Source: an uncultured bacterium (GTDB lineage Bacteria > Patescibacteriota > Minisyncoccia > UBA6257 > GWB1-50-10). From it: a DNA stretch of 64,000 nucleotides. The stretch covers positions 362,466 through 426,465 of the forward strand of contig CAVYJB010000002.1 in assembly GCA_963768835.1 (NCBI GenBank), read 5' to 3'. Shown here piece after piece: positions 17,800 through 40,550 of the stretch. Every line of letters starts with the position of its first letter. Positions within the stretch are counted from its first letter, which is position 1. The notes beneath the pieces are model-generated. The model searched no databases and was not told the origin of the DNA. It worked only from the letters and a program-made list of their open reading frames with translations. The translations under genes and the position numbers were made by a program.

Positions 17800-18247
17800 A
17801 TGAACAAAAAACTAATCGCACTTTCCGCCTTGGCTCTCAGCCTCGCGGTCGCGGTTCCGGTGTTCGCGCAGAGCACGACATCAACCCTGCCCTCCACCAC
17901 TACCACCGCCGCCCGCATCGCCTGTCTCGCCACCGCGGATCAGTGCCCGAGAGGCAACGTTGGACAGCGCCATTGCGACCTACACCCAGGCAGTCTCTTC
18001 CGCGTACACGACGCGCGCAGCGGCTCTGAACGCGGCCTACACGAGCGGCGGGACGACCGCCCAGATCCGGGCCGCCATCAAGGCAGCCTGGTCCGTATTC
18101 ACCGCATCGATGAAGGCCGCTTCGAAGGCGTGGCGGACCGCACGGACGGGCGCATGGACCACCTTCCGCGCGGCCGCGAAGGTGTGCAAGGCTCCCTCGA
18201 GCGTGAGCGACAGCGCGAACGCCGCTTCCGAGGCCGTCGGCCAGTAG
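17800..18247 (+). CDS. small secreted Ala-rich protein, apparent +1 frameshift near 17955
   Basis: Frame 1 carries a signal peptide (MNKKLIALSALALSLAVAVPVFAQS) and TTTAARIACLATADQ. Frame 2 continues as LDSAIATYTQAVSSAYTTRAAALNAAY...ASEAVGQ*. Terminator at 18272..18300. Confidence 0.4.
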
Positions 18248-18271
18248 CCGAAGGATTCGGATGCGTGGCAG

Positions 18272-18300
18272 AACCCTCCCCGACGGGGAGGGTTTTTGTT
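18272..18300 (+). terminator. intrinsic terminator
   Basis: aaccctcccc gacg gggagggtt tttgtt. Confidence 0.6.
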
Positions 18301-19388: not shown

Positions 19389-21401
19389 ATGGAATTCAAG
19401 ATCGAATCAAGCTTCAAGCCGGCCGGCGACCAGCCGAAAGCGATCGAAGAGCTTGTTGCAGGACTAAAAAAAGGTTACCGCGACCAGGTGCTTTTGGGCG
19501 TCACGGGTTCCGGGAAAACGTTCACGATGGCGAACGTTATCGCGGAGATCGCAAAAGCCGACGCTCGTGATCGCGCACAACAAAACGCTCGCGGCCCAGC
19601 TCTGCAACGAGTTCCGCGAACTTTTCCCGCACAACTCCGTCAATTATTTCGTCTCGTACTACGATTACTACCAGCCGGAGGCGTACATCCCGTCGAGCGA
19701 TACCTACATCGACAAGGAGGCGCTCATCAACGACGAGATCGACAAGCTCCGCCACGCGGCGACGACCGCGCTCCTCACGCGGCGCGACGTGATCGTCGTG
19801 GCGTCGGTGTCGTGCATCTACGGTTTGGGCGCTCCCTGCGGTCTACGCGGGGAACATCATCCATTTCAAAGTCGGCGATAAGATCGAACGCGAAAGATTT
19901 TTCGCGGAAGTTCGTGGAGCTGCAATTCAGCCGCACGACCGCCGACCTGAAGCGCGGCACGTACCGCCTGCGCGGCGAAAGCTGGGAGATCATGCCGGCC
20001 GACCGCGAGGTCATCTATAACTTTGAGGTCGACGGGACGGCGTGATTCGCGCGATCTACGAGATCGATCCGGTGCAAAGGATTCCAGCCGGGCAAAACGC
20101 CGCAGGTCGCGGACGTTATTTTCGCGCCGGCGAAGCATTTCATCACGGAGGCGCCGGAACGGCGAGCGCGCGATCAAGGAGATTCAGGTGGAACTTGCGC
20201 GACCAGCTGAAAAAGTTCGAGAGCGAAGGAGAAGTTGCTCGAGGCGGAGCGCTGGAGCGCCGGACGAAGTTCGATCTCGCGATGATGCGCGAGGTGGGTT
20301 ACTGCCACGGCATCGAAAACTATTCCCGCCATCTTTCGGGCCGTCCGCGGGCGAGCCGCCGGACACGCTCCTCGATTATTTTCCGCACACCGAGAGCGGC
20401 AAGCCGGACTTCCTTACGATCATCGACGAATCGCACATGACCGTGCCGCAGATCCAGGGCATGTATCAACGGCGACGCCGCGCGCAAGAAAACGCTCATT
20501 GAATTCGGTTTCCGATTGCCGTCCGCGGCCGACAACCGGCCCCTGCGTTTCGCCGAGTTCGAGAAGCGCATCGGGCAGGTGATCTACACGTCGGCGACGC
20601 CGGGCGCGTACGAAATAGAGAGCAAGCGAGCAGACCGTGGAACAGATCATCCGGCCGACAGGCCTCGTTGATCCGAAGATCACGATCCGGCCCGCGCGCG
20701 GGCAGGTGGACGATCTTATTCCGCGCATAGAAGACGCGGGTAAAAAAGCATGAGCGCGTGCTCGTGACGACGCTCACGAAACGGATGGCCGAGGACCTTT
20801 CGGCGTATCTCGAAGAGAAAAAAGTGAAAGTGAATTATCTGCACAGCGACGTAAAGACGCTCGACCGCATCAAGATCCTGACCGACCTTCGGAAGGGGAA
20901 GATCGAAGTGCTCGTTGGCGTGAATCTGCTTCGCGAAGGACTCGACCTGCCGGAGGTTTCGCTCGTCGCGATCCTGGACGCCGACAAAGAAGGATTTCTG
21001 CGAAGCGAGGTTTCGCTCATCCAGACGATCGGCCGCGCGGCGCGTAACGTCGAAGGCGAAGTTCTGATGTATGCCGACAACATCACCGGCTCCATTGACC
21101 GCGCCGTGAAAGAAACCGACCGCCGCCGGAAGATCCAGGTCGCGTACAACAAAGAGCACCACATCACGCCGACCACGATCGTGAAAGCGATCACGAACAT
21201 CCTGCCGACAGCGGACATCGCTGAGATCCTGAAGCTCGAGAGAAAGCGCCGCGGACGAAAACGGCGCTCAGAAGCGCTTATCGCCGAAAGGAACGCGAGA
21301 TGAGAGACAGCACCGAGGCGCTCGACTTCGAGCTCGCCGCCATCCTCCGCGACGAAATAAAAGAGCTGAGAGAAGGAGGTACAGAAGAAAGAAAAAAGTA
21401 A
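19389..21401 (+). pseudogene. uvrB: uvrB (excinuclease ABC subunit B) disrupted by multiple frameshifts
   Basis: Segments in three frames spell almost the whole of UvrB: [18 protein letters not shown] / [30 protein letters not shown] / [10 protein letters not shown] / [30 protein letters not shown] / [11 protein letters not shown] / [21 protein letters not shown] / [20 protein letters not shown] / ..[42 protein letters not shown] / C-terminal UVR domain LDFELAAILRDEI. At least 6-8 single-base shifts, two of them in A/T runs. Confidence 0.8.
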
Positions 21402-21554
21402 GAATAAGAAATAGGCGCGGCGGTGGTTGACTTATCCGCCACTCCTCCTATCCTGGGGTGGCGGTTTATACTAAACCGAATCGACGGTCCGGCGATGGTA
21501 CGCCATGCCGGACGCGCTCGATGTTCATTCACATTCACCGAAAGGAGTCACGTT

Positions 21555-22505
21555 ATGGGTACGCCCAAAAGAGTGGCTGCACCGGCGGAACCGAAGCACC
21601 CCACGGTGTCCGAGAAGGAACAATTATTCAAATTGGCTGGCGAGCGTCGAAAAGAGCTGAATCTGAAACCATTACCCCTGATACTTGAGGCGATGAGGGG
21701 TATTCTCTCTCCGCTCGTTCCCTGGCTGGATGTAGAGCTTCCTCCCCAGTTGTGTGAGCCGCGGAGAGGGCGAGCGATGCTGGTGCTGGACGGTTCGGGC
21801 CATAGGGGGTTTCCCACCCTCATGCTGGAGCGTTCCGGGAAATGGGTCGTGAAAAAAGGGTTTTGGGAGGACCTTTCGATTCACCGCATGGACTCGGATG
21901 AACTCGCCACCCTCATCGTCAAGGAAAACGACTCATTGCTTGGGTTCTCCGCGAACGGGGGCGGGAGGCGGGTGGCGGAAGAAGTTGGTTTCCTGCGCGA
22001 CATCGTGCTCTACGACTCCATTCTGGAGATGATGTCCGAATGCGGGAAGACGGTGGCACGAGCGCTCCGCGAGCGTGAGGAACGGATTCAGATCATGCAA
22101 GAACAGTTGGGGCTCCTACGCGACTTCCGGCAATCTCTCGATCCCTTGCTCGCTGCCGGAAGCGGAGTGGAGCTGAAGGAATATTCAATTTTCTCGCACG
22201 ACTCCCACGGCTCCACACGGTACACCGGGGGTTATCTCTCGGTGGACGACCTAAAACCGTTCTGGGACCACCTAGGCTCGCGGGCCACAGCGGGTTCTTA
22301 CGAGCAGTTCCTCTCGTGTCTCCATCTCAGCTCTCTTTCGAGATTCATTGAAATCATGGCGTTCTCTGCGCGGGAGATAGCCGAGACCCGGTCCAAGGGG
22401 GAAAAACAGCCTCTGAGGTTGCGGGGTACACTTCAGGACGGCTGCCATTCTCTGACAAGGAACGCGCGGTGCTCAAGGGCATTGTCGATGCCATCCGCAG
22501 TATGA
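21555..22505 (+). CDS. hypothetical protein
   Basis: AAAGGAG RBS. 317-aa ORF. Terminator at 22543..22578. Confidence 0.45.
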   Translation: MGTPKRVAAPAEPKHPTVSEKEQLFKLAGERRKELNLKPLPLILEAMRGILSPLVPWLDVELPPQLCEPRRGRAMLVLDGSGHRGFPTLMLERSGKWVVKKGFWEDLSIHRMDSDELATLIVKENDSLLGFSANGGGRRVAEEVGFLRDIVLYDSILEMMSECGKTVARALREREERIQIMQEQLGLLRDFRQSLDPLLAAGSGVELKEYSIFSHDSHGSTRYTGGYLSVDDLKPFWDHLGSRATAGSYEQFLSCLHLSSLSRFIEIMAFSAREIAETRSKGEKQPLRLRGTLQDGCHSLTRNARCSRALSMPSAV

Positions 22506-22597
22506 CGCGCTGAGGCAAGCGCATTTCTCTACCTGCCGTTCGGGCAACCCCCGGACGGCTTTTAATTTGTCCCGGAAGCTGGGTAGAATGGGGAGAC

Positions 22598-22717
22598 ATG
22601 ACAAGCAACGTCCGCATCAGAATTGAGCTCGCTACCGTCTTACAAGACGAGATCAAGGAATTAGGGAAGAAGGCCGATATCAGGAAGGTGGAAACGAAAA
22701 AGGCGCCGCGGGCGTAG
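22598..22717 (+). CDS. 39-aa mini-ORF resembling a UvrB C-terminal UVR domain
   Basis: MTSNVRIRIELATVLQDEIKELGKKADIRKVETKKAPRA, compared with the uvrB C-terminus LDFELAAILRDEIKELREGGTEERKK. Confidence 0.3.
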   Translation: MTSNVRIRIELATVLQDEIKELGKKADIRKVETKKAPRA

Positions 22718-22742
22718 TAAGAAGTAGCGGCCGACACATTCC

Positions 22743-23333
22743 ATGCCAGAGGCACCGCACGATCCACGGGAGCGAAGCGACGCAGAGCTTGTGGTGCTCG
22801 CGCTGCGCGAGCCCCAGGGCTACCGGCACCTCATGGAACGCTACGAGCCGAAGCTCCTGCGCTACATTCGTCGTATCTCCGGCGTCGTGGAAGAGGACGC
22901 GGAGGACATCCTGCAGGAGGTTTTCATCAAGGTGTACCAGAATCTGAACGACTTCGACCGCGCGCTCAGTTTTTCATCCTGGATTTACCGCATTGCCCAC
23001 AACGAGACCGTGAGCCACTGGCGGGGGCGGCAGGCGCGGCCGCCGGAGGTGTACGTGACCGATGACGACCGGGAGCTTGTGGAGCTTCTCCGTGCCGACG
23101 TGGACCTCCCGGCGACGCTCGACCGCAGCTATACCGCGGAGGCGGTCCGGGGGGTGCTGGAGCATCTGGACTCCAAGTATCGCGAGGCCCTCGTCCTACG
23201 CTTTCTTGAAGAGAAGAGCTACCAGGAGATGTCCGACATTCTCCGGAAACCGCTGGGGACGATCGCGACGCTTCTGAATCGCGCGAAGCAGCGCTTCAAC
23301 GACGAGGTTGTCCGGAGGAACCTGAAATTTTAA
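22743..23333 (+). CDS. ECF-type RNA polymerase sigma factor (sigma-70 family regions 2 and 4)
   Basis: Region 2 (DAEDILQEVFIKVYQNLNDF..WIYRIAHNE) and region 4 HTH (REALVLRFLEEKSYQEMSDILRKPLGTIATLLNRAKQRF). Confidence 0.8.
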   Translation: MPEAPHDPRERSDAELVVLALREPQGYRHLMERYEPKLLRYIRRISGVVEEDAEDILQEVFIKVYQNLNDFDRALSFSSWIYRIAHNETVSHWRGRQARPPEVYVTDDDRELVELLRADVDLPATLDRSYTAEAVRGVLEHLDSKYREALVLRFLEEKSYQEMSDILRKPLGTIATLLNRAKQRFNDEVVRRNLKF

Positions 23334-23338
23334 TCCCC

Positions 23339-24043
23339 ATGTCCGAGATACCCGACAAAATTCTGCACACCATTGAGGAACGACGCCTGGCCCCGAAGCC
23401 ACGGTGGCGCTTTGTGGTGGAGAACGCCGGGCGGTGGCTCCTGCTTTTTCTTGCGCTCCTCGTGGGCGGGCTCGCGATCGGTTTCGTGCTCGCGATTCTC
23501 CGGAACGCGGATGCCGACCTCTACACCTACCTCGGACAGAGTTCGCTCACCTACACCCTTTCCGCCATTCCCTTTCTCTGGGTGGCGATTGGTGCGCTCT
23601 GCATCGTGGCGGCCTATTATGCCTTTCATCAGACCCCGCACGGATACCGCTATCGGTTCTACGTCGTGGCGCTCGGCGTAGCGCTCATCGCGCTCCTCGC
23701 GGGGGAGAGTCTCTTCGAAGCGCGTCTCGCCGCGCGGGTGCACGAGGCGCTGACAACGCAGTTCCCGACCTATCGCGCCATGACGCCTTCCGCGGAAGCC
23801 CTCTGGACCCAGCCGGCGAACGGGCTTCTGACCGGGGTGGTCACAAGCAAGGAGAACGACGAGGAGTTCGTGGTGCAGGACGTGAAGGGAGTGCTCTGGC
23901 GCGTGGAGTCATATGCGCCGGAAATGAAGGAAGTCGTGGAACCGGAGATAGGAATGCGCCTGAAGATCATCGGCGTCGCGTACGGTTCCAACGAGTTCTA
24001 CGCCGTGGAGTTCCGTCTCTGGAACCCCCGGGGCGCGCGGTAG
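23339..24043 (+). CDS. membrane protein immediately downstream of the ECF sigma, putative anti-sigma factor
   Basis: Inferred from position. Short cytoplasmic N-terminus then several TM helices. No canonical ZAS motif. Confidence 0.4.
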   Translation: MSEIPDKILHTIEERRLAPKPRWRFVVENAGRWLLLFLALLVGGLAIGFVLAILRNADADLYTYLGQSSLTYTLSAIPFLWVAIGALCIVAAYYAFHQTPHGYRYRFYVVALGVALIALLAGESLFEARLAARVHEALTTQFPTYRAMTPSAEALWTQPANGLLTGVVTSKENDEEFVVQDVKGVLWRVESYAPEMKEVVEPEIGMRLKIIGVAYGSNEFYAVEFRLWNPRGAR

Positions 24044-24164
24044 CGGGCCCTCTATTTCGCGCGGGTACTTGACAAGGAAAGGTATAAGCTGTACTCTTCC
24101 GGGCAGATTCTTTGTCATTGTAATCCACTCACATCCATCCATATCTCACTGAAAGGAGGTAGGC

Positions 24165-25283
24165 ATGAAAAGCCTATCCTACACGCTGCTGTTTCTGGTG
24201 ATCGTTGCCCTCCTTCTGCCCGCCACCTCGAACGCTGCCGCTCCGTGGAACCTCGTGAACAGCCTGAGTCTTTCGAGCTGGTCCTCCGGATATTCCAACA
24301 CGGCGGTTTCGGGCCAGTCGTACGACTTTGTCATCACGACCGCGGCGAGCACCGGGACGCGCTTCGGGATTTTCTCTCGGGCGTATACCGCAACGAATCT
24401 GCCGCAGACCAACATGGTGGTCGCAATCGAGCTCAATGCGCCCAGCACCCAAAACGTCCGGGTCTCGATTAGCCTGTACTACCAGGGCAATCCGCAGGTG
24501 AACTCCGCCCTGGTGTATGTCGTAGGGGGCACGAGTTTCGCCGATTACACCTTCCTGTTCCCGGTCTACGCGGGTCAATTCGACGAGATGCGCTTCAACT
24601 TTTCGTATCTCGACGGAGAAACCGGCACCCGGGAAATCCTGGTGGACAACATCCGGATCGACGGGACGCTGCTGGACAACTGCGACAATCCGCTGCCCAT
24701 CCAGCTTGCGACCTTCCAGGTCGCCTCGGTGGTGGGAAGCGACGTAACGCTGTACTGGAAGACGCTGTCGGAGACCAACAACTACGGGTTCGACGTGGAA
24801 CGGAGTTCCGACGGAAAGAACTTCCAGAAGCTCAGCTTCATCGCCGGGCACGGGACCACGCTCGCGACGCATGAGTACTCCTATGAGGACAAGAGCGTTG
24901 CGGTCGGAACCTGGTACTATCGCCTGAAGCAAACGGATCTCGACGGTTCGGCGACGTACTCGGAAGTGCAGGTCGCGAAGGTCGAGGGTGTCGCGACGGT
25001 CGCGGCGCCTGAAGTGCCGACGGTGTACTCCTTGCGGCAGAACTATCCGAATCCCTTCAACCCGGCGACAAAGATCGAGTACGCGCTACCGGCAGCCGGT
25101 CGCGTGACGCTCAAGGTCTACGACGCGCTGGGGCGGGAAGTCGTGACACTCGTGGAGGGGATGCAGACCGCAGGATCGCATACGGCGACATTCGACGCCA
25201 CAAGCCTTCCGAGCGGAACTTACTTCTATCGCATCGGCGCGGGTACGTTCACGGCGACCCACAAGATGCTGCTTCTGAAGTAG
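24165..25283 (+). CDS. secreted protein with a T9SS-type C-terminal sorting domain
   Basis: Signal peptide. C-terminus YSLRQNYPNPFNPATKIEYALPAAGRVTLKVYDALGREVVTLVEG..GTYFYRIGAGTFTATHKMLLLK matches the Por-secretion-tail consensus. Confidence 0.65.
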   Translation: MKSLSYTLLFLVIVALLLPATSNAAAPWNLVNSLSLSSWSSGYSNTAVSGQSYDFVITTAASTGTRFGIFSRAYTATNLPQTNMVVAIELNAPSTQNVRVSISLYYQGNPQVNSALVYVVGGTSFADYTFLFPVYAGQFDEMRFNFSYLDGETGTREILVDNIRIDGTLLDNCDNPLPIQLATFQVASVVGSDVTLYWKTLSETNNYGFDVERSSDGKNFQKLSFIAGHGTTLATHEYSYEDKSVAVGTWYYRLKQTDLDGSATYSEVQVAKVEGVATVAAPEVPTVYSLRQNYPNPFNPATKIEYALPAAGRVTLKVYDALGREVVTLVEGMQTAGSHTATFDATSLPSGTYFYRIGAGTFTATHKMLLLK

Positions 25284-25312
25284 GGGATGGGAATCCTTCC
25301 CCTTGTTCCATG

Positions 25313-25345
25313 GGCCCGCAAGCACTATTTGCGGGCCTCTTTTTA
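25313..25345 (+). terminator. intrinsic terminator
   Basis: ggcccgca agcactattt gcgggcc tctttttat. Confidence 0.6.
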
Positions 25346-25392
25346 TCCCCCAAGGCCTGGGTCTCATTGACAGTTCAAGAGATTTATTGGTA

Positions 25393-25421
25393 TTGACAAG
25401 ATAAGGTCTGTAATTTATAAT
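25393..25421 (+). promoter_or_regulatory. promoter TTGACA-N17-TATAAT, -10 box ends only 9 nt before ATG 25431 (leaderless or near-leaderless)
   Basis: ttgacaagataaggtctgtaatttataat gccggcatt ATG. Confidence 0.55.
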
Positions 25422-25430
25422 GCCGGCATT

Positions 25431-28400
25431 ATGAATACGTTCGGAAAGTTCGCAACGGTGGCGGTTGTAGGGTCGCTCCTCGTGCTTGAGGCCGTCGTGC
25501 CCGCCGGCACCGCGCTCGCGTGGCAGGGTCCGACCCTCACCGCGACGCCCAGCGTCACCTCGGTCACCGTTTCGTGGACGACCGCGGCGGACACGTCGGA
25601 GCACTCCGTCCATTACTCGACATTGCAGATCGACGGAACGAATTTCAATTCCGCGACGAACGCGCCCGGCGTTCCGGCGCCGCTTCCGAACCAGGCGCAG
25701 AGCGTCACGGTCAACGGACTCATCTCGAACACCACCTACTACTTTGCATACTGGTCCACCTCCACGGTAGGCGAGGCGAAGTTCTCGACGGCGTCTGCGA
25801 AAACCCTCACGCCGCCGCCTCCGGCGGCTCCGAACCCGGTTTCGAACCTCACCGCGACCGCGAGCGGCACGACCTGCATCGCACTCGCCTGGGACACGCC
25901 CTCCGGAGGCTCCCTTTCCCAGTTTTATCTTAGCTATTCCACGTCCGCGATCACGGGTTCCAACTTTGCATCCGCGACGCCCGCGACGGGTCTTCCGCTC
26001 CCGATCTCCGGGACGCACCAGACCTTCACGCAGTGCGGGCTTTCCGCCGGTACGACCTATTACTTCGGTCTCACGGTGGCGAACACGGTAGGTACCCAGT
26101 CGTCTCTCGTGACTTCTTCGGCGGCCACCCAGTCGGGCGGCGGAGGCGGCGGTGGTGGAGGCGGCGGCGGAGGCCTCCTGCCTCCGGTTGCGGTTACGAG
26201 CCTTACGGCCTCGAGCTCCATCAATTCCGTGGATCTTTCCTGGAAGACTCCTTCGAGCGACAACCTTTCACAGACGAGCGTGTGGTACTCCCTTTCTCCG
26301 ATCACGTCCGGGAACGTCGCGGGCGCGACCGCCGTCACGGGCGTCCCGCTCCCGCGGAAGGGAGAGATCCAGACGGTGCATGTCCCGGGCCTCACCGCGG
26401 GCACGCTGTATTACTTCGCGGTGCAGGAGGTGGATATCGTGGGGCAGACTTCTCCTCTCGCGACCGTTTCCGCGACGACGCTCACGGGCGCGAACCTTTC
26501 GAGCGTCCCTCCGGTCACAAATCTTCTCGCCTCGAGCTCGGTGAACTTTATCAATCTCTCCTGGCTCACCCCGCAGGATGACAATCTCTCGCAGTTCAAT
26601 GTTCGGTACTCGACCTCGAGCATCACCGACGCGAACTTCGCGCAGGCGGCGGTCGCCGCAAACCCTCCGCTCCCGCGGAAGGGCCAGGGGCAGGGAATGC
26701 AGGTCTCGGGCCTGCAGGCGTCCACGCTCTACTTCTTTGCGGTCCAGGTACAGAACATCGTCGGCGCGACCTCGCCGTTGGCGACCGTCTCGACCACAAC
26801 CCTCGCGTCGGGGGGCGGTGGCGGCGGTGGGGGAGGTGGGGGTGGCGGGCTTCTTCCGCCCGGTCCCGCGACGAACCTTGCCATCACAAGCTATGTGGAC
26901 GGCGTGGATCTTTCCTGGCTCACTCCGCAGAACGACAACCTCTCGCAGTTTTCCATCCGTTACTCGACTTCAAGCATCACGGCGGGGAACTTCGCGCAGG
27001 CCGCGGTAGCTCCGAACCCTCCGCTCCCGCGGAAGGGTGAAACCCAGATGCTCCACATTGGGGGGCTCCAGAGTGGCACGACGTATTACTTCGCGATCCA
27101 GATCCAGGACATCGTGGGACAGACCTCGCCGTTGGCGACGATCTCCGGCACGACGCTTTTGAATCTCATCGGCACGCCGCCCGTGACGAATTTCACCGCG
27201 ACGCCCGATGGTACAAACGGCACGACCTGCATCGATCTCGCCTGGGACACCCCGCAGGGGCTGCTCCTCTCGGAGTTCCATCTGCGCTATTCCACGGACG
27301 CCATTACAGATGACGTGAGCTTTACCTCGGGGACTCTGGCGACCGGCGTACCGCTCCCGCGGCACGGCGAGCACCAGACTTTCACGCAGTGCGGGCTTTC
27401 GGCAGGCACCAATTATTCCTTCGGTATTAAGATCGCGAACGTTGTGGGCGTTGAATCGCCCCTCGTGACCGCATCCGCGGCCACCACGTCGGGTGGTGGA
27501 GGCGGTGGCGGCGGGGGAGGTGGAGGCGGCGGTGGAGGCGGAAGTGTCGGTGGGGGCGTCGTGACGGTCGGTGGCGGCGGTGGAGGTGGGGGCGGCGTCT
27601 CCGTGGGCCCCTCCGTGCCGACGAACGGCTCTATCCGCATCAACGGCGGTGCCGCGATCACGTACACGCGCGCTGTGACCCTCACGCTCACCGCGACGGG
27701 GGCGACACAGATGGCTATCTCGAACTCGCCGGTTTTCACGAACACCGTGTGGCTGCCGTTCGCGACGACCATGCCATGGACGCTCACGGACGGTTACGGC
27801 TCGAAGTCGGTCTACGCCCAATTCCGCAATGCGTCAGGGATCGCCTCTCCGGTTGTCGCGGGCATCCTCTATGCGCCGTATCCGGCGACGATCGGAACGG
27901 GAGGCGGCGTCGGGCGCGCCTATGACATCCAAGACGTCAACACGGCAATGGTGAACTGGGGCAAGAGCGGGACGGTCTCTGACCTGAACGGCGATGGCAC
28001 GGTGAACGTGCGGGATATCGCAGTGATGTACGCTGACTGGGCACAGAACCCTCGGCCCATCACGTCGGCGCCGACTCTCGCAACCTTCGTTTCTCCGACC
28101 CCTGGGAACGCGAACGTTCTGCCCGGTGACGAGCTCTCGGTGAACGTAGTGGCGGATCCGAAGGGAAGCCGCGATTACACCGCCGAGGTGGCGCTTCAGT
28201 ATCCGACGGATCTCCTTGAGTTTGAAACCTTCGATTTCCACGGCGGGTGGGTGCCGGTGGTGCGCCCCGAGTTCGACCAGGATAATCGGACGGACGGGAT
28301 CATTCTGAAAACCGGGGCCTACCCGGGTGGGTTCACGCGACCCGTAGCCGTCGGTACCGCCATCTTCCGTGTGAAGCAGCAGGGTGCCGGGACCGTCCGC

Positions 28401-28676
28401 GTGGCGAACGACTACTTCGTTCTGAACGCTTCGAACCAGAATGTTCTTGCACAGGGGTCCAATATGGCACCGCTCGTGGTCTTCGGGACCGTCTCACCCG
28501 CAGGGACCTTCACCGCAAACCTGCTTTCCATCTTCGGTTCGAGTAACTGGGGCGCAGGGCTTGAGGCACTTATTCTCTTCCTCATCCTCTACATCGTTTC
28601 CCGCATTCTTCAGGACCATTACCGGAAGCGCGAGGAACGGCGCACCGCCGCGCTCCAGCCGAAGCTGAGCATCTAA
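25431..28676 (+). CDS. giant surface protein: 5-6 Fn3-like repeats separated by poly-Gly linkers, dockerin-like module, cohesin-like module, C-terminal TM anchor
   Basis: Repeats of ~100 aa (LT..S..VDLSW.TP..DNLSQ..VRYSTS.IT..NFA.A..V...PLPRKG..Q...GL...TYYFA.Q..IVG..SPLATVS.TTL). Dockerin-like DLNGDGTVNVRDIAVMYADW. Cohesin-like block ..NVVADPKGSRDYTAEVALQYPTDLLEF... C-terminal hydrophobic helix plus a basic tail. Confidence 0.65.
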   Translation: MNTFGKFATVAVVGSLLVLEAVVPAGTALAWQGPTLTATPSVTSVTVSWTTAADTSEHSVHYSTLQIDGTNFNSATNAPGVPAPLPNQAQSVTVNGLISNTTYYFAYWSTSTVGEAKFSTASAKTLTPPPPAAPNPVSNLTATASGTTCIALAWDTPSGGSLSQFYLSYSTSAITGSNFASATPATGLPLPISGTHQTFTQCGLSAGTTYYFGLTVANTVGTQSSLVTSSAATQSGGGGGGGGGGGGGLLPPVAVTSLTASSSINSVDLSWKTPSSDNLSQTSVWYSLSPITSGNVAGATAVTGVPLPRKGEIQTVHVPGLTAGTLYYFAVQEVDIVGQTSPLATVSATTLTGANLSSVPPVTNLLASSSVNFINLSWLTPQDDNLSQFNVRYSTSSITDANFAQAAVAANPPLPRKGQGQGMQVSGLQASTLYFFAVQVQNIVGATSPLATVSTTTLASGGGGGGGGGGGGGLLPPGPATNLAITSYVDGVDLSWLTPQNDNLSQFSIRYSTSSITAGNFAQAAVAPNPPLPRKGETQMLHIGGLQSGTTYYFAIQIQDIVGQTSPLATISGTTLLNLIGTPPVTNFTATPDGTNGTTCIDLAWDTPQGLLLSEFHLRYSTDAITDDVSFTSGTLATGVPLPRHGEHQTFTQCGLSAGTNYSFGIKIANVVGVESPLVTASAATTSGGGGGGGGGGGGGGGGGSVGGGVVTVGGGGGGGGGVSVGPSVPTNGSIRINGGAAITYTRAVTLTLTATGATQMAISNSPVFTNTVWLPFATTMPWTLTDGYGSKSVYAQFRNASGIASPVVAGILYAPYPATIGTGGGVGRAYDIQDVNTAMVNWGKSGTVSDLNGDGTVNVRDIAVMYADWAQNPRPITSAPTLATFVSPTPGNANVLPGDELSVNVVADPKGSRDYTAEVALQYPTDLLEFETFDFHGGWVPVVRPEFDQDNRTDGIILKTGAYPGGFTRPVAVGTAIFRVKQQGAGTVRVANDYFVLNASNQNVLAQGSNMAPLVVFGTVSPAGTFTANLLSIFGSSNWGAGLEALILFLILYIVSRILQDHYRKREERRTAALQPKLSI
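26135..26172 (+). repeat. (GGN)n tract encoding poly-Gly linker 1 of the 1081-aa protein
   Basis: Seen directly. Confidence 0.85.
26810..26852 (+). repeat. (GGN)n tract encoding poly-Gly linker 2
   Basis: Seen directly. Confidence 0.85.
27494..27600 (+). repeat. long (GGN)n tract encoding poly-Gly linker 3 (G18, SVGGGVVTVG, G9)
   Basis: Seen directly. Confidence 0.85.
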
Positions 28677-28816
28677 CATCGTTATCCGAACCCGCTCCTC
28701 AGAAAGGAGCGGGTTGTGGTTTAGGGCAATGAGGTAGCGCTTGTAGGCCCGTTCGTGCTGGTATACACTCGGGCTAGCTCACGCTTCACAATAATTCACA
28801 ATTTACGGAGGATGAC

Positions 28817-29146
28817 GTGTCTATTTCTCGACTCACGCTCTACACCATCGCGGGCAACGACGATATTCTCATTGCCCATGCCGGTCCGGACGAGAAGACA
28901 GGGAAGTATTCAGGATGGATCACGCACGGCGCGGAACGATATTGTCGTCCAATCGTAAACACCGATGCCCGGTACGACACCCCCGCAGAGGCGGAAGCTG
29001 CCATGAGAGAACTCGTGAAGATCGCAAAGGCGTTCACAGATGGGGATCTGAAGGACCCCGAGAACCCGATTGTGCAACTCTTCGCGCGCCCCGAAGGGAA
29101 GATCGTCCAGAAAATTGTGGAACTATCAAAGCTCAAAGCGCCGTAA
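28817..29146 (+). CDS. hypothetical protein
   Basis: GGAGGA RBS. Terminator at 29135..29160. Confidence 0.4.
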   Translation: MSISRLTLYTIAGNDDILIAHAGPDEKTGKYSGWITHGAERYCRPIVNTDARYDTPAEAEAAMRELVKIAKAFTDGDLKDPENPIVQLFARPEGKIVQKIVELSKLKAP

Positions 29147-29160
29147 GGCGCTTTTTTATT
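29135..29160 (+). terminator. intrinsic terminator
   Basis: aaagcgcc gtaa ggcgcttt tttattt. Confidence 0.65.
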
Positions 29161-29234
29161 TGACGTTGTCTATGAATCCGCTATACTTGCCTTCGTACCC
29201 CTAGGGATTCGAGCCCCGGGGCAAATTCTGTTAT

Positions 29235-31752
29235 ATGCAGGACAAAATCATCATCAAGGGGGCCCGGGAGCACAACCTGAAGAACATCAACCTCACGATT
29301 CCGCGGGGGAAGATGGTCGTGTTTACGGGGCTCTCGGGGTCCGGGAAGTCCTCGCTCGCCTTCGATACCATCTTCGCGGAGGGCCAGCGTCGGTACATCG
29401 AATCCCTCTCCGCGTACGCGCGGCAGTTTTTGGGCCGCTTCGACAAGCCGGACGTGGACGAGATCGAGGGACTCAGCCCCGCCATCTCCATCGACCAGAA
29501 GAGCCACTCCGCGAACCCGCGCTCGACCGTGGCCACCATCACGGAGATCTACGACTACCTCCGCGTGCTTTTCGCGCGCGTGGGGCAGCCATTCTGCCCG
29601 CGGTGCGGCCGCGCCATCCAGAAGACTCACGAACGAGGAGATAGTGGACATCGTGGCCGACGCGCCAAGAATCGCAACGACGGACAAGAAAATCGTGCTC
29701 CTCGCGCCCGCCGTGCGCGGCCGGAAAGGGGAGTACTACCAGATGCTCTACGACTTCCTGAACGCGGGTTTCAGCGAGGTGCGCATTGACGGGAGTTCCA
29801 ATCGCTCCGGGAGCGCGTCGAACTCTCGCGCTACAAGCAGCACACCATCGAGCTCGTCGTGGACCGCATCCCCTCGATGCTCGACTTTACGAACAAGGAC
29901 CACCGGCTGCGGCTCTCGGAGGCCGTGGAGTCCGGTCGAAGTACGGAAACGGGGTCGTGGCGTTCTGGACGAGGAGGAAGTCTCCCTCTCCGCGCAGTTC
30001 ACCTGCCCCGTGACGGTTTCTCGTTCCCCGAGATTGAGCCGCGTCTCTTCTCCTTCAACAGCCCGTACGGCGCCTGCCCGGCGTGCAACGGCTCGGCGAC
30101 GAAAGCATCTGGTCCGAGAAGATCTGCCCCGTCTGCCTCGGCAAGCGCCTGGAAGAAAGGCCCTGAACGTTCTCGTGGGCGGGAAGAGCATCGCGGCGGT
30201 CGCGGCGATGCCCATCGACGACGCCGACGCGTACTTCGCGAAGCTGACGCTCCCAGATCGAAGGCGAAGGCGGAGTCGCCGAAGCCCCGCTCCGGGAGAT
30301 TACGGACCCGGCTCAAGTTCATGGTGGACGTGGGGCTGGAGTACCTGACGCTGGAACGGAAGGCGGGCACCCTCTCGGGCGGGGAGGCCCAGCGCATCCG
30401 GCTAGCATCCCAGATCGGCTCGCGCCTCACCGGCACGCTCTACGTGCTCGACGAGCCCACCATCGGTCTCCATCAAAGGGACAACGCGAAGCTTCTCGAG
30501 ACCCTCCACGAGCTTCGCGATCTCGGGAATACAGTCCTGGTCGTGGAGCACGACGAAGAGACCATCCGCTCCGCGGATTACCTCGTGGATATCGGTCCCG
30601 GCGCGGGCGTGCACGGCGGCCGCATCGTCGCGGAAGGCCCCATCCCGGAGGTGCTGAAAGACAGAAGGATACGGAGTCCCTGACCATCGAGTACCTGAAC
30701 GGAAGAAAGTTTATCGAGGTGCCGCGCGAGCGCCGCGCGGTGAAACGGGACCACGAAAGTCTGAAGATCCGCGGCGCGACGGCGAACAATCTCCAGAATC
30801 TCGATCTGGATATACCCCTGCGGCGCTTCACGGCCGTGACGGGCGTCTCGGGTTCCGGGAAATCCACCCTTGGTCTACGACATCCTTTTTAAAACCCTCT
30901 CGAACAAGTTCAACGGGTCGGCGTACAAGGTGGGGGCGCACAGGGCGCTCCTGGGGGCGGAGTATATCAACCGCATCGTGAACATCGACCAGTCTGCCAT
31001 CGGCCGCACGCCGCGGTCGAACCCCGCGACCTACGTCGGCGCCTGGACCTTCATTCGGGACCTCTTCGCGGCGTCGGAGGATGCGCGCGTCCGCGGCTAC
31101 AAGCCTGGCCGGTTTAGCTTCAACGTGCGCGGGGGGCCGTTGCGAGAACTGCGAGGGGCACGGCCAGATCGCCATTGAGATGCACTTCCTGCCCACGGTC
31201 TACGTGACCTGCGACGTCTGCAAGGGGAAGCGCTTCGACCGCGAAACGCTCGAGGTCGAGTACAAGGGCAAGAACATCCATGAGGTGCTCCAGATGACGG
31301 TGGAGGAGGCAGTCACGTTCTTTGAAGACATCCCCTGGCTTTTCGACCGGCTGAAGATCCTGGATGAGGTGGGGCTGGGCTACATCGAGCTTGGCCAGTC
31401 CGCGACGACGCTCTCGGGCGGGGAGGCCCAGCGCATCAAGCTGGGGGCGGAGCTCGGCAAGCGCGACACTCGGCGCACCCTTTATCTCTTGGACGAACCG
31501 ACGACGGGGCTCCATTTCGCCGATGTCCAGCACCTCTTGAATGTCCTGAACCGCCTTGTGGATCGCGGCAACACTGTGGTGGTCATCGAGCACAATTTGG
31601 ATGTCATCAAGACCGCCGACTGGGTTATCGATCTGGGGCCCGACGGTGGCGAGAAAGGCGGGAAGCTGATCGCGGTGGGCACCCCGGAGGCGGTTTCTAA
31701 AAAAGTGGGCAGCGCGACGGCGCCGTATCTGCGGAAAGTTCTGAAAGCATAG
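29235..31752 (+). pseudogene. uvrA: uvrA (excinuclease ABC subunit A) disrupted by many frameshifts
   Basis: UvrA sequence is spread over at least 5 overlapping ORFs in different frames: [61 protein letters not shown] / [36 protein letters not shown] / [23 protein letters not shown] / [25 protein letters not shown] / [59 protein letters not shown] / [27 protein letters not shown] / [60 protein letters not shown]. Both ABC modules are recognisable. Confidence 0.8.
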
Positions 31753-31761
31753 AAAAATTAA

Positions 31762-31790
31762 GGCACCCGAGGAAAGGGTGCCTTTTGTTC
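31762..31790 (+). terminator. intrinsic terminator after the uvrA pseudogene
   Basis: aaggcaccc gaggaaa gggtgcctt ttg. Confidence 0.55.
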
Positions 31791-31806
31791 TGTTATCGAT
31801 AGTCTC

Positions 31807-32319
31807 TCATGTCCTTTTGGAGGCGCTTGGTATTTCGCGTCTGGGGCTACTCGAGTTTCGGTACATCCGTTCGATTCTTCGCGCGATTTTCGGCGCGAAC
31901 TCCGTGCAGCGGAGTGTCGGCAACGTGACCAGGTACAGGACCGCTCCGAGAACCAGGCCGCCGCAAACTCCTCCCACGAGCCCGATGAGAAACACAAAAA
32001 AGAAGGTTCCACAAATGGCCGAGAACGAGTCTGTGAAGATGCCTCGGATCACGGCGAACATGAGCGCGTTCCACACACTCCCGACGCCCACGAAAAGGAG
32101 GCCGCTGAAGAATCCTGGGGGTGTTGCCCGGAGAAGCGCTAGCCCCAGGAGTACGGCGACGGTCGCACCGGAGATGATACCAAGTACGACGTCGCTTTTG
32201 CCGACGGGTTCGATGCTGAACGGTTTGAATATGTCTGCAAGAACGAACGCCATCGCGGGGAGCAGGAACGTACCGAGAAATCCCAGCCGCCCATGCTTGA
32301 AAGTAATCCATCGCTTCAT
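31807..32319 (-). CDS. hypothetical integral membrane protein (4 TM)
   Basis: 170-aa hydrophobic ORF on the minus strand. Confidence 0.45.
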   Translation of the reverse strand: MKRWITFKHGRLGFLGTFLLPAMAFVLADIFKPFSIEPVGKSDVVLGIISGATVAVLLGLALLRATPPGFFSGLLFVGVGSVWNALMFAVIRGIFTDSFSAICGTFFFVFLIGLVGGVCGGLVLGAVLYLVTLPTLRCTEFAPKIARRIERMYRNSSSPRREIPSASKRT

Positions 32320-32427
32320 TGGAGCACCTCTTGATATGTGAGTGGGATGGAAATATAGAGTGATATGAGCTGAGAACGTTGTACCACTAGTAAGACCATC
32401 GCGTCAACTCGTTGGTGGCACAGGGCC

Positions 32428-32463
32428 CAAAAAGAAGCAGGCCGTTCTGACGAAAGGCCTGCT
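32428..32463 (-). terminator. intrinsic terminator for minus-strand gene 32501..32935
   Basis: Minus strand reads agcaggcc tttcgtcagaac ggcctgct tctttttgg. Confidence 0.55.
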
Positions 32464-32500
32464 GTGGAGAGGGGGACCATCGGAGGGAGGCGGCGAGGCC

Positions 32501-32935
32501 TCATACGGGCCGCGCGGCGGGCTGGGGCAACCTCGCGGGGTTCTTGAAGGGGCCGCAGACCCACTCGACACACCAGGCGATGCAGAAGAGTATCGCGCCG
32601 GCAACGAGTCCGTAGGAAAGGCCTGCCACCACATACACGACCGATACGACGAACGTCGCGAGAGTCCCGATTGCTCCATCCCCGATAACCATCGCGGTGA
32701 TGAAGCTGAACAAGACACCACCGAGGCCCAACAGAAGGAACAGGAGCCTGAGGGACGGAGGGTCGGGTGTCCGCATCCGGACCATCCCGGCCGCGATGAC
32801 CGTTCCGAGTATGTACACGGTGATATCCTCGAGCTCCTTGTCTCTTGTATAGGAGTTCTTCCAGAAGGTGCCGAAAATGAGCGCGGTGGCGAGGAGGAGG
32901 ACTGCGATGGCGAGAACAGACAAGATCCGTTTCAT
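32501..32935 (-). CDS. hypothetical integral membrane protein (4 TM)
   Basis: 144-aa hydrophobic ORF. Minus-strand hairpin terminator at 32428..32463. Confidence 0.45.
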   Translation of the reverse strand: MKRILSVLAIAVLLLATALIFGTFWKNSYTRDKELEDITVYILGTVIAAGMVRMRTPDPPSLRLLFLLLGLGGVLFSFITAMVIGDGAIGTLATFVVSVVYVVAGLSYGLVAGAILFCIAWCVEWVCGPFKNPARLPQPAARPV

Positions 32936-33047
32936 AAAACCTCCGTGGGTTGTGGTTGGATGAGATGATCTGTGCTCGTTTTACTCCCGAACTGCGAGGG
33001 CGTCAACTCATTTGAGCGCGGGGCGGTTTTGCGCAATGATGGTGGGT

Positions 33048-34256
33048 ATGAAAGAGGAGAAGCTCTATAGCCATCTTCCTGACACCCCCGGCGTCTACCT
33101 CATGAAGGACGCCGTAGGGAGGATTCTCTATATCGGCAAAGCGGGCAATCTAAAGCGCCGCGTCTCAAGCTATTTCCAGAAAGCCCACGAGTACCGTATC
33201 GAGAAGCTCGTCTCCGAGATCCGGAAGATCGAGTACCGTCCGACCGACTCGGCGCTCGAGGCTCTGATTCTCGAATCCGCGCTCATTAAGAAGCACCAGC
33301 CCTTCTATAACATTCGCGAGAAGGACGACAAGAGTTTCCTCTATGTGGAAATCACGAAGGAGAAGTACCCGCGGGTGCTTCTGGTGCGCGGCAAGGAGCT
33401 CGCAGCGCAGAGCCGCGGAACCATCTTCGGTCCCTTCACGTTCGCCTCGAACCTGAAGGAGGCGCTCCGTATCCTCCGGCACATCTTTCCGTGGAACACG
33501 CATGACCCGGAAGCGCTCGCGAAATTCAAACGGCCCTGCTTCGATTACGAGATAGGGAACTGCCCGGGGGCTTGCACGGGTAGGCTCACGACGGGCGAGT
33601 ACGCGAAGACCGTGCGGTACATCCGCGACTTCTTCCGGGGCAAGAAGCAGGCGATTCTCCGATCGCTTGAGCGGGAGATGAAAGCGGCGGCGAAGAAGCT
33701 CGAGTTCGAGAAAGCTGCGCGGCTCCGCGGGCAGGTGTTCGCACTCCGGCATATCCGGGACACCGCGCTCATCAACAAGGATGAGTTTGGTGATTTTGAC
33801 GGCAGGCAGAGTTCACCGCGGCGGATCGAGGGCTACGATATCTCGAACATCTCCGGAACCTCTGCCGTCGGCTCGATGGTGGTTTTCACGGGCGGGGAGC
33901 CCGATAGGAACGAGTACCGCAAGTTCCGCATCCGCTGGATCACACAGTCGGACGACACAGGGATGCTGCGCGAGGTCATCGGACGCCGGTTGGGGAACGA
34001 CTGGCCCCTGCCGGATCTCATGCTCATCGATGGCGGTAAGGGCCAGGTGCACGCGGCGGAGACCGTGCTTTCCGAACATGGGGTGCGGATACCGGTCGTG
34101 GGTATCGCGAAAGGCCCGGAGCGCAAGAAGAATGAATTCATTGGAATGGTACCGAAGTGGGCAGACGAGAAAGTGCTCATCCGTATCCGGGACGAAGCCC
34201 ATCGGTTTGCGATTTCATATCATCGGACGCTGCGGGGCCACAGATCGCTGCAGTAG
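33048..34256 (+). CDS. uvrC: excinuclease ABC subunit C, short form lacking the C-terminal (HhH)2 domain
   Basis: GIY-YIG N-terminus (PGVYLMKDAVGRILYIGKAGNLKRRVSSYF). UvrBC-interaction motif (FEKAARLRGQVFALRH). RNase-H-like endonuclease domain (IEGYDISNISGTSAVGSMVVF..YRKFRI). The ORF stops after DEAHRFAISYHRTLRG, about 403 aa. Confidence 0.75.
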   Translation: MKEEKLYSHLPDTPGVYLMKDAVGRILYIGKAGNLKRRVSSYFQKAHEYRIEKLVSEIRKIEYRPTDSALEALILESALIKKHQPFYNIREKDDKSFLYVEITKEKYPRVLLVRGKELAAQSRGTIFGPFTFASNLKEALRILRHIFPWNTHDPEALAKFKRPCFDYEIGNCPGACTGRLTTGEYAKTVRYIRDFFRGKKQAILRSLEREMKAAAKKLEFEKAARLRGQVFALRHIRDTALINKDEFGDFDGRQSSPRRIEGYDISNISGTSAVGSMVVFTGGEPDRNEYRKFRIRWITQSDDTGMLREVIGRRLGNDWPLPDLMLIDGGKGQVHAAETVLSEHGVRIPVVGIAKGPERKKNEFIGMVPKWADEKVLIRIRDEAHRFAISYHRTLRGHRSLQ

Positions 34257-34622: not shown

Positions 34623-36383
34623 ATGGAGATGGAGCGAAAAACGGGCGGCGCCTACTCGGGCCGCTCCTTTTATTTATACACAGTGAAAGGAAGGACGCTT
34701 GGAAAGGGTATAATAGATGGAATGACATTAGCTGAAGAACTAAAGGCGTTCCTCCACGGCGATGTGGCGGATGATGATGTGACGCTCGCGAAATACAGCC
34801 GCGACGCGAGCTTGTTTGAGGTCCGCCCGAAGGTGGTGGTGTATCCGAAGGATCGCGAAGATGTAGAGAGTCTCGTGAAATTCGTGGCGGAGCGTAAGAA
34901 GACCGATCCCAGCATCTCGCTCACGGCGCGCTCCGCGGGCACTGACATGTCGGGCGGGCCTCTTTCGGAATCCATCGTGGTGGACTTCATGCGTTACTTC
35001 ACTCAAATCCTTCAGATAGGGGACCGCGTCTCCGTTGAAGGAGGAGTCCAGATGGGTTTCGGTACGGTCGAGCCTGGCGTCTTCTACCGCAACTTTGAGA
35101 AAGAAACCCTGAAGCAAGGGTATCTGTTCCCGTCCTATCCCGCCTCCCGCGAGCTCTGCGCCATGGGCGGCATCGTGAACAACAACTCGGGCGGCGAGAA
35201 ATCTCTCGTGTACGGAAAGACGCAGGACTATGTGATGGAGATGAGGGTGGTTCTCGCAGACGGGAAAGAGCACCTGCTCAAGCATCTTACGGTGTCCGAC
35301 CTTGAGAGTAAGATCGCGGCCGGCGGTTTTGAGGGGGAACTCTATGGAAAGCTTCGGGACCTTTTCGAGAAGAACTACGACCTCGCGAAGCGCGCGAAGC
35401 CGCAGGTCACAAAGAACTCCGCCGGGTACAACGTCTGGGACGTCTGGGACCGGCGCACCTTCGATATCACGAAGCTCCTCGTGGGCGCGCAGGGGACGCT
35501 CGGTCTCATGACCGAGGCGACGCTCGCGCTCGTGCGGACGAAGCCCTGCTCGGGGATGCTCGTCATCTTCATGGACGACCTGAAAGTGGGCGGCATCGTG
35601 AACGAGGTCTTGCCCTTCGAGCCCTCGAGCTTCGAGTCCTTCGACGACCACACGCTCCGCTTGGCCTTGAAGTACCTCGGGGGGTTCGTGAAGCTGCTTG
35701 CGAAGAATCCCTTCTCGCTCGCGCTCGCATTCCTCCCGGAGTTCTGGATGGTGCTCACGCATGGGATGCCGAAGCTCGTTCTCATGGTCGAGTTCGAGGA
35801 GGTGGACCAGGCGACGGTGGACCAGAAGCTCCGCGACCTTCAGACAAAGCTCCGCGCCTTCCCGGTTCGGATGCGCCTCGCAAAGACCAAGGACGACGCG
35901 CGGAAGTACTGGGCTATCCGCCGCGAGAGCTTCAATCTGCTCCGCCAGAAGGTGAAGGGGATGCAGACGGCGCCGTTCGTGGACGACCTTATTGTGGCTC
36001 CGGAGCACCTGCCCGAGTATCTGCCGAAGCTCTACGCCATTCTCGACCGCTACGGATTCCTCTACACCATCGCGGGCCATATGGGGAATGGCAACTTCCA
36101 CGTGATACCCTTGATGCACCTCCAGGACGAGGCGGAGCGTGCAAAAATACGCCCGGCCATGGAGGAGATCTATGCGCTCACCTTCCAATACGGCGGTTCC
36201 ATGACCGCGGAGCACAACGACGGTCTTATCCGCTCGCCTTTTCTCCCGCAGATGTTCGGCAAGGAGGTCGTGGAACTCTTCGCGGAGGTGAAACATATTT
36301 TCGATCCGGAGAACATCTTCAACCCTGGGAAGAAAGTGGACGCCTCGCTCCCGTACGCGCTGGAGCACATGAAACGCTCCTGA
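34623..36383 (+). CDS. FAD-linked oxidase (GlcD / D-lactate dehydrogenase family)
   Basis: PCMH-type FAD-binding domain (VVVYPKDREDVESLVKFVAERK..SLTARSAGTDMSGGPL..ELCAMGGIVNNNSGGEKS) and a C-terminal oxidase domain (HMGNGNFHV). The true start may be the internal Met at ~34722. Confidence 0.75.
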   Translation: MEMERKTGGAYSGRSFYLYTVKGRTLGKGIIDGMTLAEELKAFLHGDVADDDVTLAKYSRDASLFEVRPKVVVYPKDREDVESLVKFVAERKKTDPSISLTARSAGTDMSGGPLSESIVVDFMRYFTQILQIGDRVSVEGGVQMGFGTVEPGVFYRNFEKETLKQGYLFPSYPASRELCAMGGIVNNNSGGEKSLVYGKTQDYVMEMRVVLADGKEHLLKHLTVSDLESKIAAGGFEGELYGKLRDLFEKNYDLAKRAKPQVTKNSAGYNVWDVWDRRTFDITKLLVGAQGTLGLMTEATLALVRTKPCSGMLVIFMDDLKVGGIVNEVLPFEPSSFESFDDHTLRLALKYLGGFVKLLAKNPFSLALAFLPEFWMVLTHGMPKLVLMVEFEEVDQATVDQKLRDLQTKLRAFPVRMRLAKTKDDARKYWAIRRESFNLLRQKVKGMQTAPFVDDLIVAPEHLPEYLPKLYAILDRYGFLYTIAGHMGNGNFHVIPLMHLQDEAERAKIRPAMEEIYALTFQYGGSMTAEHNDGLIRSPFLPQMFGKEVVELFAEVKHIFDPENIFNPGKKVDASLPYALEHMKRS

Positions 36384-36403
36384 GGGCCGGAACGGGGGCG
36401 TAT

Positions 36404-36433
36404 TGACATGGCACCCCTTTGGGTGCTATGCTC
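36404..36433 (+). promoter_or_regulatory. promoter TTGACA-N18-TATGCT for 36492..36884
   Basis: Direct match. Confidence 0.5.
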
Positions 36434-36491
36434 ATTCTCGGCTCTTCAAAAACGCTTCATTTCACTCATAAAACCAATATACGGGGGAAGG

Positions 36492-36884
36492 ATGGAAGGG
36501 AGTACTACCGCAAAAGCACGTTCCGCAGTTTTGCACAGGAACGGGCATGACCGCCTCACGAATGAGGCTCTCTTGGATCGTCTGACTCTCGCGTCAACAA
36601 AACGCGAGGAGGAAGATCTCGCAACCAAGCTTGCGCTCGAAGTTCTGCGTCGCGTGGCCTACCGACGATGGCCCCGCGCGCTTTCCAGGCTTCAGAGGTT
36701 AATTACTGTGGCGCGACGCGTGGAGATCAAAGGGAAGGACCACCGGATCGATTCCATCGGGGGAGAACCTGTCTCCGTCAGGAAGTTGGAGGCTCTTCGG
36801 CGGAAACTATCCGATATGCTTCCGAAAGAACTTGCAGCACCCCGGGGGAAAGCCGCCCCCGACCCACAGCCCCAACACCCATAA
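36492..36884 (+). CDS. hypothetical protein
   Basis: Promoter TTGACA-N18-TATGCT at 36404..36433. GGGGGAAGG RBS. Confidence 0.4.
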   Translation: MEGSTTAKARSAVLHRNGHDRLTNEALLDRLTLASTKREEEDLATKLALEVLRRVAYRRWPRALSRLQRLITVARRVEIKGKDHRIDSIGGEPVSVRKLEALRRKLSDMLPKELAAPRGKAAPDPQPQHP

Positions 36885-36902
36885 ACCATAAGGAGAGGTT
36901 GC

Positions 36903-40549: not shown

Positions 40550-40550
40550 G

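Follow-up and report, generated by a model that had tools for sequence, protein, structure and literature searches.

Single-base frameshifts crowded into uvrA and uvrB of a Patescibacteria contig are probably consensus errors of a long-read assembly

How can two genes of one repair pathway each spell out a complete protein and nevertheless be broken by a dozen or more frameshifts? This question is raised by uvrA and uvrB, two nucleotide excision repair genes on a stretch of 64,000 nucleotides (the window; positions 362,466 to 426,465 of contig CAVYJB010000002.1, assembly GCA_963768835.1) from an uncultured bacterium of the Patescibacteria (Paceibacterota). Three-frame translation yields a complete, well-conserved protein from each locus only when the frame is changed many times, and a codon-usage frame scan indicated that frame hopping of this kind is confined to these two genes. 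We consider it very probable that the frameshifts are consensus errors, made during assembly or polishing of a long-read metagenome-assembled genome, and not mutations of the organism, in which both genes are most likely unbroken and the UvrABC system functional. The two loci and their shifts are the following.

19389-21401, plus strand: uvrB, a full UvrB of 664-667 amino acids after 14-19 single-base corrections.
Insertions in uvrB: near 19552, 19834/19838, 19891/2, 20032 and 20038 (or one deletion near 20037-20041), 20074/5, 20161-3, 20194-7, 20230/1, 20466/7, 20623 and 20736.
Deletions in uvrB: near 20252, 20345-9 and 21242.
Extra +1/-1 pairs in uvrB: 21271/21288 and possibly 21308/21321.
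Event-free stretch of uvrB: 20737-21241.
29235-31752, plus strand: uvrA, the short form typical of the clade, ~838 amino acids after 12 single-base corrections.
Insertions in uvrA: near 29624/5, 30275, 30300-3, 30867-73 and 31130-7.
Deletions in uvrA: near 29794, 29938, 29960, 30006-10, 30090-3, 30158 and 30672-9.
Event-free stretches of uvrA: the first 390 and the last 620 nucleotides.

The frame changes were counted with a frameshift-aware protein-to-DNA alignment written for this analysis, which registered no event in five intact control loci taken from the 80 best uvrA loci. By this count uvrB contains 14 events relative to protein P0001 (10 insertions and 4 deletions) and uvrA contains 12 relative to protein P0123 (5 insertions and 7 deletions), which amounts to 15 insertions and 11 deletions over both genes. 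Base-level DNA alignment of uvrB to L001, a metagenome contig of the Joint Genome Institute (JGI) that is 94% identical in this gene, raises the count for uvrB to about 19, because the 3' linker then proves to contain additional +1/-1 pairs; in this alignment insertions outnumber deletions. Altogether the two genes carry 26-31 events, each exactly 1 nucleotide long and none of them a larger deletion, and the repaired paths run through ~1,500 codons without an in-frame stop. As deposited, neither gene can be read from start to end in a single frame. A preliminary description of this DNA had reported at least six shifts in each gene; three-frame translation and alignment bear this out and make the case stronger than it was stated. 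Two of its junctions have to be moved. Where it saw an extra A in the uvrB string gcaAaag, a surplus C or G at 19551/19552 is the better explanation, as removal of the C restores the conserved ...AEIEKPTL..., and the uvrB junction that it placed in a T5 run maps ~10 nucleotides upstream, at 19891/19892.

How exceptional is this density? At least 26 events fall into the 4,531 nucleotides of uvrA and uvrB, as compared to an expectation of ~0.15 (P ~1e-48) that allows two events for the remaining window, one probable frameshift and one homopolymer discrepancy. The rest of the 64 kb thus holds about one frameshift, in the following gene.

17800-18290, plus strand: gene for a secreted Ala-rich protein whose signal peptide is encoded in one frame and whose mature part is read in the +1 frame.

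A single extra base near CCACCGCGGATCAG (join near 17935) is probably responsible, and this is the sole probable frameshift outside uvrA and uvrB. The earlier claim that nothing comparable occurs elsewhere in the window therefore holds for the density of events but needs amending for this one gene with its probable single +1 shift.

Are the two genes decaying? A real and very recent pseudogenisation would mean that this lineage, and independently related lineages in the same habitat, are losing nucleotide excision repair and that uvrC has not yet been hit. Consistent with such a loss, the two genes hit act in one pathway, uvrC has escaped both in the window and on two other contigs, the frameshifts are present in the deposited record, and a 7.8-kb insertion separates uvrB from uvrA, so that the locus has been rearranged. 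The kind of change is nevertheless not what decay leaves behind. In bacterial mutation spectra substitutions are ~10 times as frequent as small indels, deletions exceed insertions, indel lengths vary and indels favour homopolymers. Against this background 19 indels in 2 kb should be accompanied by neutral substitutions numbering ~100 or more and by several stop codons. Repaired uvrB differs from the gene of L001 (window 19415-21369 aligned to L001 10036-11984) at 25 of 667 amino acids, with ~15 differences in the core, a synonymous divergence (dS) of 0.19 and a ratio of non-synonymous to synonymous divergence (dN/dS) of 0.125. The low dN/dS, the few residue changes and the absence of stops make up the substitution record of a gene under purifying selection, and of the marks of a natural pseudogene, in-frame stops are missing from both genes and a dN/dS near 1 is not found in uvrB. 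The events themselves also lack the marks of a natural indel spectrum, as they show no deletion bias, no mixture of lengths and no preference for homopolymers: at most 2 of the 26 could lie inside runs of at least 4 identical bases and 7 of the 26 inside runs of at least 3. The preliminary description would have given up its view had the shifts been found only in homopolymers and at a contig-wide rate; they are local and not driven by homopolymers. Pseudogenes under neutral decay in Mycobacterium leprae, Rickettsia and recent endosymbionts resemble the present case in that frameshifted, recognizable genes stand beside intact ones and a whole pathway appears affected. The differences are the missing in-frame stops, the dN/dS that has not risen, the absence of multi-base deletions and of a deletion bias, and a ratio of indels to substitutions of ~1:1 at most and not ~1:10. 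Pseudogenisation is in our view an unlikely explanation.

Substitutions in uvrB are, moreover, not placed at random with respect to the indels. Mismatches to L001 amount to 10.7% within 5 nucleotides of an indel versus 4.7% overall (2.3-fold, p = 0.002), and this crowding fits small clusters of consensus error. It could also be imagined that uvrB is a mosaic of several species. This was rejected, since L001 is the best match (0.87-0.99) in every 150-nucleotide segment of the conserved part.

Could the frame be restored during expression, by many programmed +1 and -1 ribosomal frameshifts or by an editing of the transcript that deletes and inserts nucleotides? Such functional recoding would account for a repaired frame that is under strong purifying selection and free of stops, and related contigs also contain genes with multiple shifts. 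The shift sites themselves argue otherwise. No common slippery sequence or motif was found around them, as no 3- to 5-mer enriched near the sites survives multiple testing, and the sites show no codon-phase bias, both of which count against programmed frameshifting or editing. The same test disposed of a methylation-type or other motif, for which GATC had looked suggestive. Furthermore, a single gene contains +1 as well as -1 events, no stop closes the old frame at the junctions, and the sites vary from genome to genome, being different in the window and in the three contigs L004, L005 and L088 described below. Poly(A) slippage in endosymbionts and programmed frameshifting in prfB, dnaX and insertion sequence (IS) elements likewise give a correct gene only after a frame change. 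In those cases one or two shifts occur, at a defined slippery sequence or homopolymer that relatives have in common, whereas uvrA and uvrB of the window have 12-19 shifts each, which go both ways, lie in unrelated sequences and are not conserved. We know of no such many-shift recoding system in bacteria, and consider recoding to be extremely improbable.

Might the window hold expendable copies, with uvrA and uvrB being decaying duplicates or recently acquired foreign genes and the intact, functional copies located elsewhere in the genome? With its 94% DNA identity to L001 the uvrB gene does stand alone, as the flanks of that contig have no detectable similarity to those of the window and cannot be aligned with them, and a second uvrB end may once have been present 1.2 kb downstream.

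22598-22717, plus strand: mini open reading frame (ORF) of 39 amino acids, residues 6-25 of which agree at 13 of 20 positions with the C-terminal UVR helix of UvrB.

This mini-ORF, which had been noticed before as UVR-like and holds as an observation, though an ordinary one, matches no Pfam family and does not resemble the end of the resident uvrB in DNA. Judging from its sequence it is probably what remains of a uvrB 3' end; an earlier copy of uvrB may have left its tail behind in a rearrangement or gene replacement. Expendable copies run into the same problem with the spectrum as real decay does, namely indels only, no stops and a low dN/dS. In addition, the window contains neither gene a second time, and the similar pattern on other contigs of the batch would be left unexplained, which makes this explanation very unlikely. 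The similarity between window and L001, confined as it is to uvrB, suggests that this gene is either exceptionally conserved or has been exchanged between Paceibacterota lineages. An 839-codon gene that adjoins uvrB in L001 was considered as its uvrA and rejected, as it encodes a methyltransferase of the restriction-modification type.

Is the pattern restricted to this genome? The best matches of the stitched UvrB and UvrA are proteins labelled Patescibacteria, Paceibacterota or Minisyncoccia. A search with a segment of the repaired UvrA found no intact copy of this UvrA, the best match being 76% identical, and it returned many UvrA fragments on long contigs. Three contigs of the same batch, a run of ENA analysis accessions, were picked through such UvrA fragments and a fourth, L086, through a UvrB match; all of them have Flye-style names (contig_N).

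L004 (ERZ25039512, contig_87090, 126 kb): uvrA with 15 single-base shifts.
L005 (ERZ25039491, contig_41201, 511 kb): uvrA with 11 shifts.
L088 (ERZ25039521, contig_32295, 117 kb): uvrA with 2 shifts.
L086 (ERZ25039519, contig_76937, 120 kb): uvrB with 1 shift, uvrA intact.

The frameshifts thus recur in the batch, in each of these four deposited assemblies. The two most affected contigs, L004 and L005, come from different species, their uvrA being only 72% identical in DNA to that of the window. Both are also the loci that contain uvrC, which is intact in each, and L005 has the same gene order uvrA, uvrC, FAD-oxidase as the window. Multiple hits in one batch in species as distant as ~72% DNA identity are better accounted for by a technical cause than by pseudogenisation; that species of one batch carry between 0 and 15 shifts without common sites indicates a technical process and not inheritance or selection. 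L004 contains further split genes, for a DUF763 and a DUF3443 protein (L004 1006-2114 and 3858-5197), and in L087, a recent JGI contig with 1 shift in uvrA, the thymidylate synthase gene thyA is split (L087 1516-2459), which reveals a background of frameshifts in these assemblies. Among the best uvrA loci from other metagenomes, ranked by match score and thereby favouring intact genes, 80 of 80 have an ORF of at least 800 amino acids. The preliminary description had left the choice between a sequence artefact and a recent loss of repair with a mutator genotype. The former has gained support from the mutation spectrum, the dN/dS and the recurrence in the batch; the latter has lost it.

The frameshifts are also on public record. 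Exact look-up found the 184-residue first uvrA fragment with its out-of-frame tail and a 104-residue uvrB fragment on the deposited contig of 551,795 nucleotides (NCBI, ENA), by which synthetic or planted frameshifts are ruled out. The same exact look-up returned these fragments from NCBI and ENA and none from Logan, a k-mer assembly. The independent Logan assembly of run ERR11594402 reproduces window positions 23253-29221 without a mismatch and with a single 2-nucleotide homopolymer difference, at the following site.

23700-23704, plus strand: run of five G, which is G3 in the Logan contig of ERR11594402 and the sole difference in 5,967 nucleotides.

With the G5 of the window the ORF of a 234-amino-acid membrane protein is open, and with the G3 of Logan it is split. 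The Logan contig breaks at CCCCGGGG and GGGG runs and stops 14 nucleotides before uvrA, so that it spans neither uvrA nor uvrB. Its end just before uvrA could be taken for a graph break at the gene; we regard it as neutral, because both contig ends lie in G/C homopolymers. No independent assembly of the same population that covers uvrA or uvrB was found, exact-pattern scans of genome contigs gave no match, and neither did look-ups of the sigma factor downstream of uvrB, of a 103-amino-acid upstream ORF and of two fragments. A search of the literature for the accessions and for the phenomenon returned nothing.

What kind of error would concentrate in two genes? Both uvrB and uvrA are the longest and the most DNA-conserved genes of the window. 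Relative to L086, uvrB is 85% and uvrA 74% identical over the full length; secD and secF reach 68-73% over parts only, and the gene for PBP2 cannot be aligned. The genes uvrA and uvrB are therefore the sites where foreign sequence could align and corrupt the consensus. Most probably polishing went wrong here: homologous sequence of foreign origin would align to the draft only in conserved genes such as uvrA and uvrB, and it would derive from the reads of related community members, from a repeat collapsed between genomes, or from the reference homologues used by a homology-guided polisher. Wherever such sequence aligns the consensus would be corrupted, leaving scattered single-base indels and small clusters of substitutions nearby. 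The reads were apparently Nanopore reads assembled with Flye, as contig names, contig sizes and the behaviour of homopolymers suggest. Residual indel errors of Nanopore/Flye assemblies share with the present case the single-base indels that split otherwise well-conserved ORFs, the Flye-style names of contigs hundreds of kb long, the split genes in L004 and L087, and the homopolymer discrepancy between the window and the k-mer assembly of the same run. They differ in two respects: the events of the window are concentrated ~400-fold in two genes instead of being spread along the contig, and they lie mostly outside homopolymers with insertions at least as frequent as deletions. Concentration, independence of homopolymers and richness in insertions together speak for local corruption by foreign homologous sequence and not for plain basecalling error.

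Consensus error is favoured because the indels are 1 nucleotide long, have no deletion bias, lie mostly outside homopolymers, come with almost no neutral substitutions and recur in the batch at other positions. The pattern of the indels, their presence in the deposition, their recurrence and the intact gene found elsewhere are direct observations. Several points weigh on the other side. The consensus errors are deduced, and so is the sequencing platform. The events are not associated with homopolymers and lean to insertions, which is unlike the textbook residual error of Nanopore sequencing. Both affected genes belong to one pathway, as a loss driven by selection would also predict, and the control of 80 intact loci is biased to intact genes by the ranking according to match score. 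Finally, one specific artefact model, according to which both alleles of a wobble-site polymorphism are retained in the consensus, failed its test. Insertions should then sit at wobble positions where the alternative base is synonymous; 26 of 35 insertions agreed with this, as compared to 0.63 in a simulated null (p = 0.11), and 10 of 15 in the window alone, so that the model is unsupported. The wobble-site pattern of insertions had been striking by eye in L004 before the simulation.

What would the repaired genes encode? Repaired UvrB, which is 96% identical in protein sequence to P0001, contains the Pfam domains ResIII, UvrB_inter, Helicase_C, UvrB and UVR, all five above cut-offs, and thus has the helicase core, the interaction domain, the UvrB domain and the C-terminal UVR motif of the family. 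Repaired UvrA, 81% identical to P0123, matches ABC_tran twice and UvrA_inter once and retains its CxxC motifs as well as GSGKS in each of the two Walker A motifs; two ABC ATPase modules, zinc modules and the UvrB-interaction domain are accordingly present. The third gene of the system lies downstream of uvrA.

33036-34256, plus strand: uvrC, an intact single ORF with an uncertain start (TTG at 33012 or ATG at 33036 or 33048).

Its product has GIY-YIG, UVR and RNase H-like endonuclease domains in Pfam. The intactness of uvrC and the lack of the (HhH)2 domain, both remarked on earlier, were confirmed, as the Pfam scan detected no HhH family. The Pfam domain sets of UvrC in L004 and L005 contain none either, so that an HhH-less UvrC is typical of the clade and ordinary. 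The repaired system shares with canonical UvrABC the full domain set of UvrB, the two ABC modules of UvrA together with its UvrB-interaction domain, and the GIY-YIG, UVR and RNase H endonuclease domains of UvrC. It differs in a UvrA of ~838 amino acids, the usual length in the clade, in which the insertion (DNA-binding) domain is not detected by Pfam, and in a UvrC without the C-terminal (HhH)2. The short UvrA and the HhH-less UvrC are reductions typical of the clade and have nothing to do with the frameshifts.

In many relatives (e.g. L029, L035, L038 and L040) uvrB and uvrA are adjacent; in the window they lie ~7.8 kb apart, on either side of a block of inserted genes.

21423-29146, plus strand: block of ~7.8 kb between uvrB and uvrA.

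The block contains a 360-amino-acid ORF without Pfam hit, the mini-ORF described above, an ECF-type sigma factor, the 234-amino-acid membrane protein, a Por_Secre_tail protein, a 1081-amino-acid repeat protein with poly-Gly runs and a 109-amino-acid ORF. The Por_Secre_tail domain, which serves sorting in type IX secretion, is unexpected in Patescibacteria.

Further features of the window were recorded in passing. Paralogous Cys-rich proteins of ~550-630 amino acids with many CxxC motifs are encoded at 10195-12087 and 44453-46114, the second in a stretch of lower GC content (0.50), and have the N-terminal motif ...C(K/Q)NCK..F.I...D..FYEK.QVP.PTFC..CR.QRR in common. Secreted proteins encoded at 268-1599 and 3313-5976 share a long and closely similar C-terminal domain, the larger one (3313-5976) also containing 17 Gly in a row and linkers rich in Ser and Thr. 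GC content is lower, too (0.48), over the first 2 kb of the window. An intact HNH endonuclease gene on the minus strand (15895-16450) is overlapped by a spurious 503-amino-acid ORF on the plus strand, and several other genes of this genome of 60% GC have very long antisense ORFs, such as those on the minus strand at 34740-36368 and 40506-41981, which should not be mistaken for genes. Translations read by eye show at 54564-55574, 59294-60325 and 60355-63393 two mreB-like paralogues followed by mreC-like, mreD-like and PBP2-type transpeptidase-like genes, so that this Patescibacteria genome would have the complete set of rod-shape genes. At 36408-37150 a 158-amino-acid ORF is followed, after a single stop, by an ORF of ~80 amino acids in the same frame; these are two small genes or else a single gene interrupted by an in-frame stop. 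The window, including the 850-nucleotide stretch 36383-37230, gave no match to tRNA or Rfam models.

What follows for the organism and its relatives? It is very improbable that the indels are real and that several Patescibacteria lineages carry a dozen or more single-base indels in uvrA and uvrB with the frame still under purifying selection. If this were true, it would point to an unknown, indel-specific mutational process aimed at uvrA and uvrB, or to a correction at the level of RNA or of the ribosome. Most likely, the frameshifts do not matter for the biology of the bacterium. They matter for the quality of the data, as in this public long-read batch assembly can be poorest in precisely those long genes that are best conserved. 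An automatic annotation would discard uvrA and uvrB as pseudogenes, surveys of repair capacity or metabolism would in turn record a spurious loss of nucleotide excision repair or a spurious mutator genotype in Patescibacteria, and the conserved genes on which estimates of marker-gene completeness and phylogenomic sets are based could suffer in the same manner.

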